Of a DNA stretch of 64,000 nucleotides, positions 51,955 through 52,600 are shown piece by piece (the first letter of the stretch is position 1; every line of letters begins with the position of its first letter). The stretch lies in NCBI RefSeq assembly GCF_050920415.1, contig NZ_CP169309.1; one strand, written 5' to 3'. Position numbers and translations under genes: made by a program. Below the pieces are notes generated by a model. The model did not search any database and had not been told where the DNA came from. It saw nothing but the letters and a program-made list of their open reading frames with translations. This stretch comes from Escherichia coli (lineage in GTDB: Bacteria > Pseudomonadota > Gammaproteobacteria > Enterobacterales > Enterobacteriaceae).

Positions 51955-52600
51955 GAGAAATCCTTTTCAATGAATGACATTTCAAATAATAAAATATGAG
52001 TAACAGATAAGAAATAGCCACAGGCTGTGTCATGATTTAATGTCTGCTCTTGAAATTTTATTTAGCAATCCCAGAATATTCAACTTAATTAGTATTTCGA
52101 AACCTCAATGTAGACACATAAAAAACAAATTATTCGATTACTTAGGCTATTTGTTGCATTAATACACATCCTCTAACAATAATCAGACAAAAAGCAATGT
52201 CAGCGTCAAATTGGGTAGCTGATTCATATTACTGATCACTCCGTAAATTCATTCATCGTGAAAATATTAACATTTCAACCATGTTCCATTTAATCAACCC
52301 ACTGAAAATCTGGAGGTTATCTACTGCGGTTTGTTGTTGACTGCCCCTGACAGGTTTACCTGGCGTTGACAGAAGATGAGGCTTGCAAAATGCTAAAAAC
52401 AATGTGGTGTTACAAGCAATCCCATAAACCTCGTAACTTCACTTAAATGAGCGATGCCGTCCATATTTGGGTTGACTATAAAAACCCTTAATATTGAGGT
52501 TGATGATGATATTCATGATGGCGTTGGAAAAATAGGACACCCATAAAATATCTATACAGCCTTTAAATTAAATCATTGAAATATCGCTGTTGCATAGTGC

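Follow-up and report, generated by a model that had tools for sequence, protein, structure and literature searches.

In Escherichia coli K-12, the genes ydbL and ydbA flank a catabolic cluster in which feaR, feaB and tynA serve the conversion of phenylethylamine to phenylacetate, and paaZ, paaA-K, paaX and paaY form the phenylacetyl-CoA pathway. In the 64,000-nucleotide stretch of E. coli DNA analyzed here (the window), only a short spacer lies between the two genes, which raises the questions of whether the cluster is missing from the strain or only from this site, and of how the junction came to be without it. The original prediction placed a cluster of about 17 kb between ydbL and ydbA in K-12. 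The MG1655 coordinates put the cluster exactly there (end of ydbL, 1446206; start of ydbA, 1465392), and the size proved to be a slight underestimate, since the interval measures 19,185 bp, of which the stretch from feaR to paaY by itself takes up 18.7 kb. This interval contains feaR, feaB, tynA, paaZ, paaA-K, paaX, paaY, and the tiny ynbG.

In the window, the left side of the junction is formed by a ydbA/BigA-family autotransporter gene on the minus strand (46417-51954), an intact open reading frame (ORF) of 5,538 bp encoding 1845 aa, whose product is given as autotransporter in the RefSeq annotation of the matching genome. On the right side is ydbL (52601-52927, minus strand; Pfam DUF1318), followed by ynbE and ydbH (52932-55753, minus strand), which are conserved core genes recognized from the annotation of the matching genome and from the YdbH model (NCBIfam equivalog match, 1393 bits). 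The operon ydbH-ynbE-ydbL thus runs from 55753 to 52601 on the minus strand. According to the same annotation, the neighbors are pdxI and ydbD on the left and ldhA, hslJ, and nifJ on the right. The spacer between ydbA and ydbL (51955-52600, no strand assigned) had been described as 645 bp of AT-rich, non-coding DNA. It is indeed non-coding and AT-rich, with a GC content of 34.4% against 48.7% for the window and a longest internal ORF of 49 aa, and its length is 646 bp.

Upon alignment of the window with K-12 by blastn, the right flank (52603-57002) matched at 95.5% identity and the homology stopped at 52603, 5 bp before the stop codon of K-12 ydbL; on the left, 42429-48104 aligned at 91.6% identity. 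The spacer had no match in K-12 by blastn, even with a word size of 7, and a blastn-short search of the K-12 interval with the spacer as the query found nothing. When the 18 proteins encoded in the interval were searched against the spacer by tblastn, only chance-level matches were obtained (best E value 0.13), bearing out the earlier statement that the gap holds no fea or paa remnants. Across the whole window, tblastn gave no match for paa or tynA, and the FeaB and PaaZ matches fell only on the paralogous aldehyde dehydrogenase genes patD and aldA. These results confirm that the fea-tynA-paa cluster is absent between ydbA and ydbL, where only the 646-bp spacer is found. Neither gene fragments nor K-12-type flanking intergenic sequence, which would mark a deletion scar, were detected at the junction by blastn with word size 7, blastn-short, or tblastn. 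The picture implied by the original prediction, that of a K-12-like region minus the cluster, was therefore inaccurate: the spacer has no homology to the K-12 flanks, and the passenger domain of the adjoining ydbA is a very different allele.

The spacer was found in 17 of 5,426 complete E. coli genomes at 98.6-100% identity, with megablast and word-11 blastn giving the same result. One of them, the complete genome of MFDS1022581 (NZ_CP169399.1), was identical to the window at 24,045 of 24,046 positions; as this is a single mismatch, the genome serves as a proxy for the strain. A composite probe combined the spacer with 300-bp pieces of feaB, tynA, paaA, and paaK, and was used in blastn searches that are sensitive to about 65-70% identity and blind to paa genes below about 65% DNA identity. 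In MFDS1022581 and on the 16 other spacer-bearing chromosomes, the probe matched in one place only, the spacer, and no match to feaB, tynA, paaA, or paaK was found elsewhere on these 17 chromosomes. The plasmids of the 17 genomes gave no match to the probe either, as the matching records equaled the matching genomes in number. Genes residing elsewhere in the genome, which would have spoken against the original prediction, were thus not encountered in MFDS1022581. Since the probe matched the spacer only, the cluster genes are shown, at the sensitivity of this search, to be absent from the genome and not relocated, with no fea, tynA, or paa gene at the junction or elsewhere. That a plasmid or another chromosomal site carries the cluster and that catabolism is retained is extremely improbable: plasmid-borne copies do exist, as 12 of the 12,806+12 probe-matching places were on plasmids of other genomes, but none of the 17 spacer genomes had a second matching record, and the window-wide tblastn found no paa or tynA. 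An assembly artefact, in which the cluster was collapsed or dropped, has next to no probability, as different laboratories have obtained the same junction in 17 independent complete genomes. Given the genome-wide absence of the fea, tynA, and paa genes, the strain is predicted to be unable to grow on phenylethylamine or phenylacetate.

Compared over some 55 kb, the window and K-12 shared about 95-96% identity. In the ldhA-ydbH region, it was 96% identical to K-12, IAI39, UPEC132, and ZH063, a comparison that covers phylogroups A, F, and B2, whereas these four strains were 98-99% identical to one another. EC42405 and 2013C-4282, which have been listed as completely sequenced strains of Escherichia cryptic clade I (Okuno et al. 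2023, PMC10100065), are both among the 17 spacer genomes, and, with ydbA and the spacer set aside, 24 kb of the window agreed with EC42405 at 98.2% identity. When ynbE-ydbH-ldhA was used as the query, the best 18 matches were the 17 spacer genomes and strain N96 (97.4-100% identity), and all others were at or below 97.1%. As the criterion for clade I, we used a core genome about 4-5% diverged from that of E. coli sensu stricto, together with a closer affinity to recognized clade I genomes, and such an affinity was found for the window at the scale of the window sequence. The simplest reading of the affinity over about 24 kb and of the two published strains is that the window derives from a clade I strain and that its junction would be the usual clade I allele. 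A clade I-specific marker gene of 1368 bp, located outside the window, has been described, with primer sequences (Okuno et al. 2023, PMC10100065).

Other differences from K-12 were observed along the window. A 1.3-kb AT-rich segment (3405-4739, 33% GC) between yncL and patD is absent from K-12 and contains, on the minus strand (3698-4507), a gene for a hexapeptide-repeat acetyltransferase, CatB-related according to the annotation of the matching genome. Another 1.3-kb segment (32056-33391, 38% GC), between ydcF and hrpA, is absent from both K-12 and N96 and encodes a DUF7021-DUF2262 protein (32396-33253, minus strand). The gapC gene for a type I glyceraldehyde-3-phosphate dehydrogenase (28504-29505) is intact and encodes 333 aa, and it is a pseudogene in K-12. 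Compared with K-12, a 444-bp deletion has removed hicA and the 5' portion of hicB, and the window has neither IS609 nor the hokB/mokB/sokB locus (345 bp); the positions of the hicAB, IS609, and hokB/mokB/sokB differences are, as one list, ~12057, 16393/16394, and 27345-27354.

The ydbA gene of the window combines a conserved C-terminal third with a highly divergent passenger domain (~48100-51954). In blastn, the passenger region (48104-51965) gave only patchy matches to K-12 at 65-75% nucleotide identity, and the protein was 56% identical to K-12 YdbA. Against IAI39, the identity fell from 70% at the C-terminal end to 42% at the N-terminal end. The Pfam models BigA_N/BigA_beta, for the BigA_N beta-barrel domain and the BigA beta-sandwich domain, were matched above their cut-offs (PF25784, 91 bits; PF25783, 88 bits), and the score for the NCBIfam BigA model (NF033178), 985 bits, was far under the cut-off of 3400. 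By these model scores, the window YdbA is classed as a member of the BigA family and not as BigA itself, that is, not as the equivalent of Salmonella BigA. No relatives of its N-terminal 1280 aa were found among GTDB species representatives, so that, within that set, the allele is unrepresented among species type genomes. The window ydbA is intact, whereas K-12 has a ydbA pseudogene interrupted by IS2 and IS30. Even relative to the clade I strain EC42405, the gene appeared mosaic, with 70-78% identity or no alignment at 48-50.3 kb.

The adjoining ydbL also differs from that of K-12, as the window YdbL ends in GKWLQK before the stop, an ending common to IAI39, and the K-12 type ends in GKWVRKF. 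In the GTDB representative of E. coli, SCPM-O-B-8794, YdbL was 75% identical to K-12 YdbL beside a feaR at 96%, indicating deep allelic variation in ydbL.

The spacer itself consists of two parts. The ydbA-proximal part of about 300 bp (51955-52260) was 66% identical over 225 bp to the spacer of IAI39 in blastn, and a MAFFT alignment with IAI39 revealed conserved blocks in this part up to the ATG. Because of this resemblance and these blocks, we infer that it is a putative upstream regulatory or leader region of ydbA, a promoter role included, and assign it to the minus strand. The ydbL-proximal part of about 340 bp (52261-52600, no strand assigned) is lineage-specific: it had no similarity to the junctions of K-12, UPEC132, ZH063, or IAI39, no match in 73 loci from other Enterobacteriaceae species, and no match in the other 5,409 E. 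coli genomes. In the spacer as a whole, Rfam covariance models gave no match at E<=1, folding z-scores of -0.93 and +0.53 were not better than those of shuffled sequences, no terminator-like site was found, and promoter-like sites occurred at the chance rate of shuffled sequence. The only repeat was a 13-nt direct repeat in two copies, and a 12-nt palindrome lay just inside ydbA, both at chance level; accordingly, no traces of mobile elements (IS remnants or junction repeats) above chance and no ORF longer than 49 aa were found at the junction. The spacer, and above all its ~340-bp part, might be a clade I-specific regulatory region controlling the ydbA adhesin; it could act, for example, as an H-NS-bound silencer or contain an unannotated small RNA or leader.

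How the two states of the junction relate to each other is best seen in N96 (NZ_CM169999.1). A 500-bp identity profile showed ~100% identity between N96 and the window across most of 17432-64000. Outside 44.5-54.5 kb, the exceptions were a single 1.3-kb indel and short stretches of lower identity (18.5-19.5 kb; 33.4-39.5 kb). Between ~44500 and ~54500 (no strand assigned), the two differ over a continuous tract, which we read from this profile as a homologous-recombination tract. The edges of the tract are 90-97% identical between the window and N96, and 46427-52602 of the window (6.2 kb) has no counterpart in N96. In the window, the tract comprises part of ydbD, pdxI, ydbA, the spacer, ydbL, ynbE, and part of ydbH. 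A K-12-type ydbL is followed in N96 by feaR through paaY and then directly by pdxI, without ydbA. N96 therefore shares the chromosomal backbone of the window, at ~100% identity for most of the window outside the ~10-kb tract, but unlike the window it carries the cluster and lacks ydbA. On the evidence of the two sequences, a difference of this kind marks allelic replacement through homologous recombination in the core genes on both sides, and not site-specific insertion or excision.

The 19-kb cluster of N96 was at most 97.3% identical to each of the clusters in 3,097 other E. coli genomes, and among the 5,426 genomes no donor was found, the best match being 97.3%. This level of identity argues against a recent import from sampled E. 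coli sensu stricto, and the N96 cluster may either have diverged vertically within clade I or have its origin in a lineage outside the sample. Among these complete genomes, cluster-less and cluster-bearing alleles stood at 17:1 (the 17 spacer genomes versus N96), a ratio suggesting that clade I commonly carries the cluster-less allele.

Presence and absence of the cluster also vary widely across the species. At least one of the four probes (feaB, tynA, paaA, and paaK) was found in 3,304 genomes and none in 2,122 of the 5,426 (39%); the full K-12 interval was covered to at least 80% in 3,097. The cluster-less junctions are of several types. ZH063 resembles the window in having ydbL and ydbA side by side and no functional fea or paa genes, but it retains a deletion scar, in which a 252-bp 3' fragment of feaR is fused to a 329-bp 3' fragment of paaY, and K-12-like flanks. 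UPEC132 has a clean gap of 374 bp, in which positions 1-64 of the K-12 left flank are joined to 14-330 of the right flank. The only type that the window spacer resembles is that of phylogroup F (IAI39, SMS-3-5, and CE10; 47 genomes), where ydbL abuts an intact ydbA without the cluster and without K-12-like flanks, YdbL has the same C-terminal ending, and the ydbA-proximal ~225-300 bp are homologous at 66%. This IAI39/SMS-3-5 type nevertheless has a spacer of 452 bp instead of 646 bp, its ydbL-proximal half is unrelated to that of the window, and at the N-terminus of the ydbA passenger domain the identity is as low as ~42%. The ydbL junction has different content again in Escherichia sp. MOD1-EC7003 (5365-7390 of the locus), where a K-12-type ydbL is followed by 45 bp of K-12-like intergenic sequence and by repeated helix-turn-helix ORF fragments, which resemble transposase pieces by look only; a 313-aa gene of no assigned function is also present.

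The region has been described before. The feaRB-tynA-paa cluster has been reported as a "region of genomic heterogeneity" in E. coli, carried by ~76-82% of phylogroup A genomes, and ydbA has been reported as variable (Goldstone et al. 2016, PMC4951805); the cluster was also missing in the B2 and E genomes studied by Leimbach et al. (2017, PMC5422975). The window locus shows the same presence/absence behavior as the region in those reports. They concern E. coli sensu stricto, whereas the window carries a clade I allele, with a spacer found in 17 of 5,426 genomes and a clade-specific ydbA. The absence is thus an ordinary, already documented accessory-gene polymorphism, and since the heterogeneity of the region was already published, the finding amounts to a correct reading of it.

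With regard to the carriage of ydbA, paaY was directly adjacent to pdxI, without ydbA, in 2,033 of the 5,426 genomes when the N96 junction was used as the query. From the junction and coverage counts, up to about two thirds of the cluster-bearing genomes could be without ydbA. By comparison, ydbA was retained in those cluster-less genomes that were inspected (ZH063, UPEC132, IAI39, and the clade I genomes). This pattern might reflect a real fitness trade-off between an adhesin and aromatic-amine catabolism, and not mere linkage at a hotspot. Taken together with a regulatory role for the spacer, this reading is improbable in our estimation.

How, then, did the cluster-less state arise? As a whole, the explanation we hold to be very probable is that the window derives from a clade I strain with the old cluster-less haplotype usual in its lineage, and that the polymorphism has been moved by recombination. 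In the clade I haplotype, an intact but very divergent ydbA and the upstream region belonging to it would be followed, up to ydbL, by ~340 bp of AT-rich DNA specific to the lineage. The cluster-less state would be old and lineage-wide, and the alleles would be exchanged between strains through homologous recombination in the ydbH-ynbE-ydbL and pdxI-ydbD flanks. A recent single deletion, IS-mediated or illegitimate, from a K-12-like ancestor, with the 646 bp as the fused remains of the flanking intergenic sequences, is already contradicted and very improbable. Such a mechanism does occur at the locus, as the scars of ZH063 and UPEC132 show, but the spacer is unlike both K-12 flanks and every cluster gene, the junction has neither IS remnants nor junction repeats, and the 5' half of the adjoining ydbA is itself a different allele. 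Moreover, the 17 genomes that share the spacer diverge by as much as 2.6% in their flanking genes.

A more serious alternative, which we still consider unlikely, is that the site was ancestrally empty: clade I, perhaps even the Escherichia ancestor, would never have had the cluster, E. coli sensu stricto would have gained it horizontally, and N96 would have received it by a later import. We surveyed one genome per species with a YdbH scan, followed by tblastn with a panel of K-12 proteins. In E. albertii and E. whittamii, ydbL led straight to pdxI without the cluster and without ydbA, and in Escherichia sp. E1V33, ydbL was followed after ~400 bp by the start of ydbA, again without the cluster; therefore, the absence could date back to the ancestor of the genus, in which case E. 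coli sensu stricto would have regained the genes. The lack of any scar in the spacer fits this alternative, as does the relationship of the proteins. K-12 FeaR, FeaB, and TynA were 81%, 92%, and 92% identical to those of Pseudocitrobacter versus about 66%, 88%, and 86% to those of Citrobacter, and the reverse held for K-12 YdbH (71% versus 82%), an incongruence which suggests that the cluster may have moved horizontally long ago. Against an empty ancestral site, feaR-feaB was found directly after ydbL, in the same orientation, in several species of Citrobacter and also in Klebsiella, Raoultella, Enterobacter, Pluralibacter, Cedecea, Trabulsiella, and Pseudocitrobacter, with the full order feaR-feaB-tynA-paaZ-paaA in Trabulsiella and Pseudocitrobacter. 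The cluster genes were absent from Salmonella enterica subsp. arizonae and diarizonae and from many Citrobacter species. Repeated loss, which is common in E. coli, is a more parsimonious assumption than renewed insertion at precisely that site, and the divergence of the N96 cluster from the 3,097 others is more in keeping with vertical descent within clade I than with recent import from a sampled E. coli. Because feaR-feaB adjoins ydbL in many other Enterobacteriaceae, and given this old linkage together with frequent losses, ancient loss in the lineage of the window is favored over the cluster never having been present, and is probably the origin of the absence.

The understanding of the pathway and of E. 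coli genome dynamics is unchanged by these results, as the variability of the locus was known before. What is added is the clade I allele, with its lineage-restricted spacer, the genome-wide absence of the cluster, and a near-isogenic strain with the alternative allele. The spacer could be used as a simple sequence marker for the clade I allele at this locus. N96 and MFDS1022581 together provide a clean natural example in which a 19-kb catabolic cluster is swapped for an adhesin gene by flanking homologous recombination, and the predicted inability to grow on 2-phenylethylamine or phenylacetate would apparently extend to most clade I strains.
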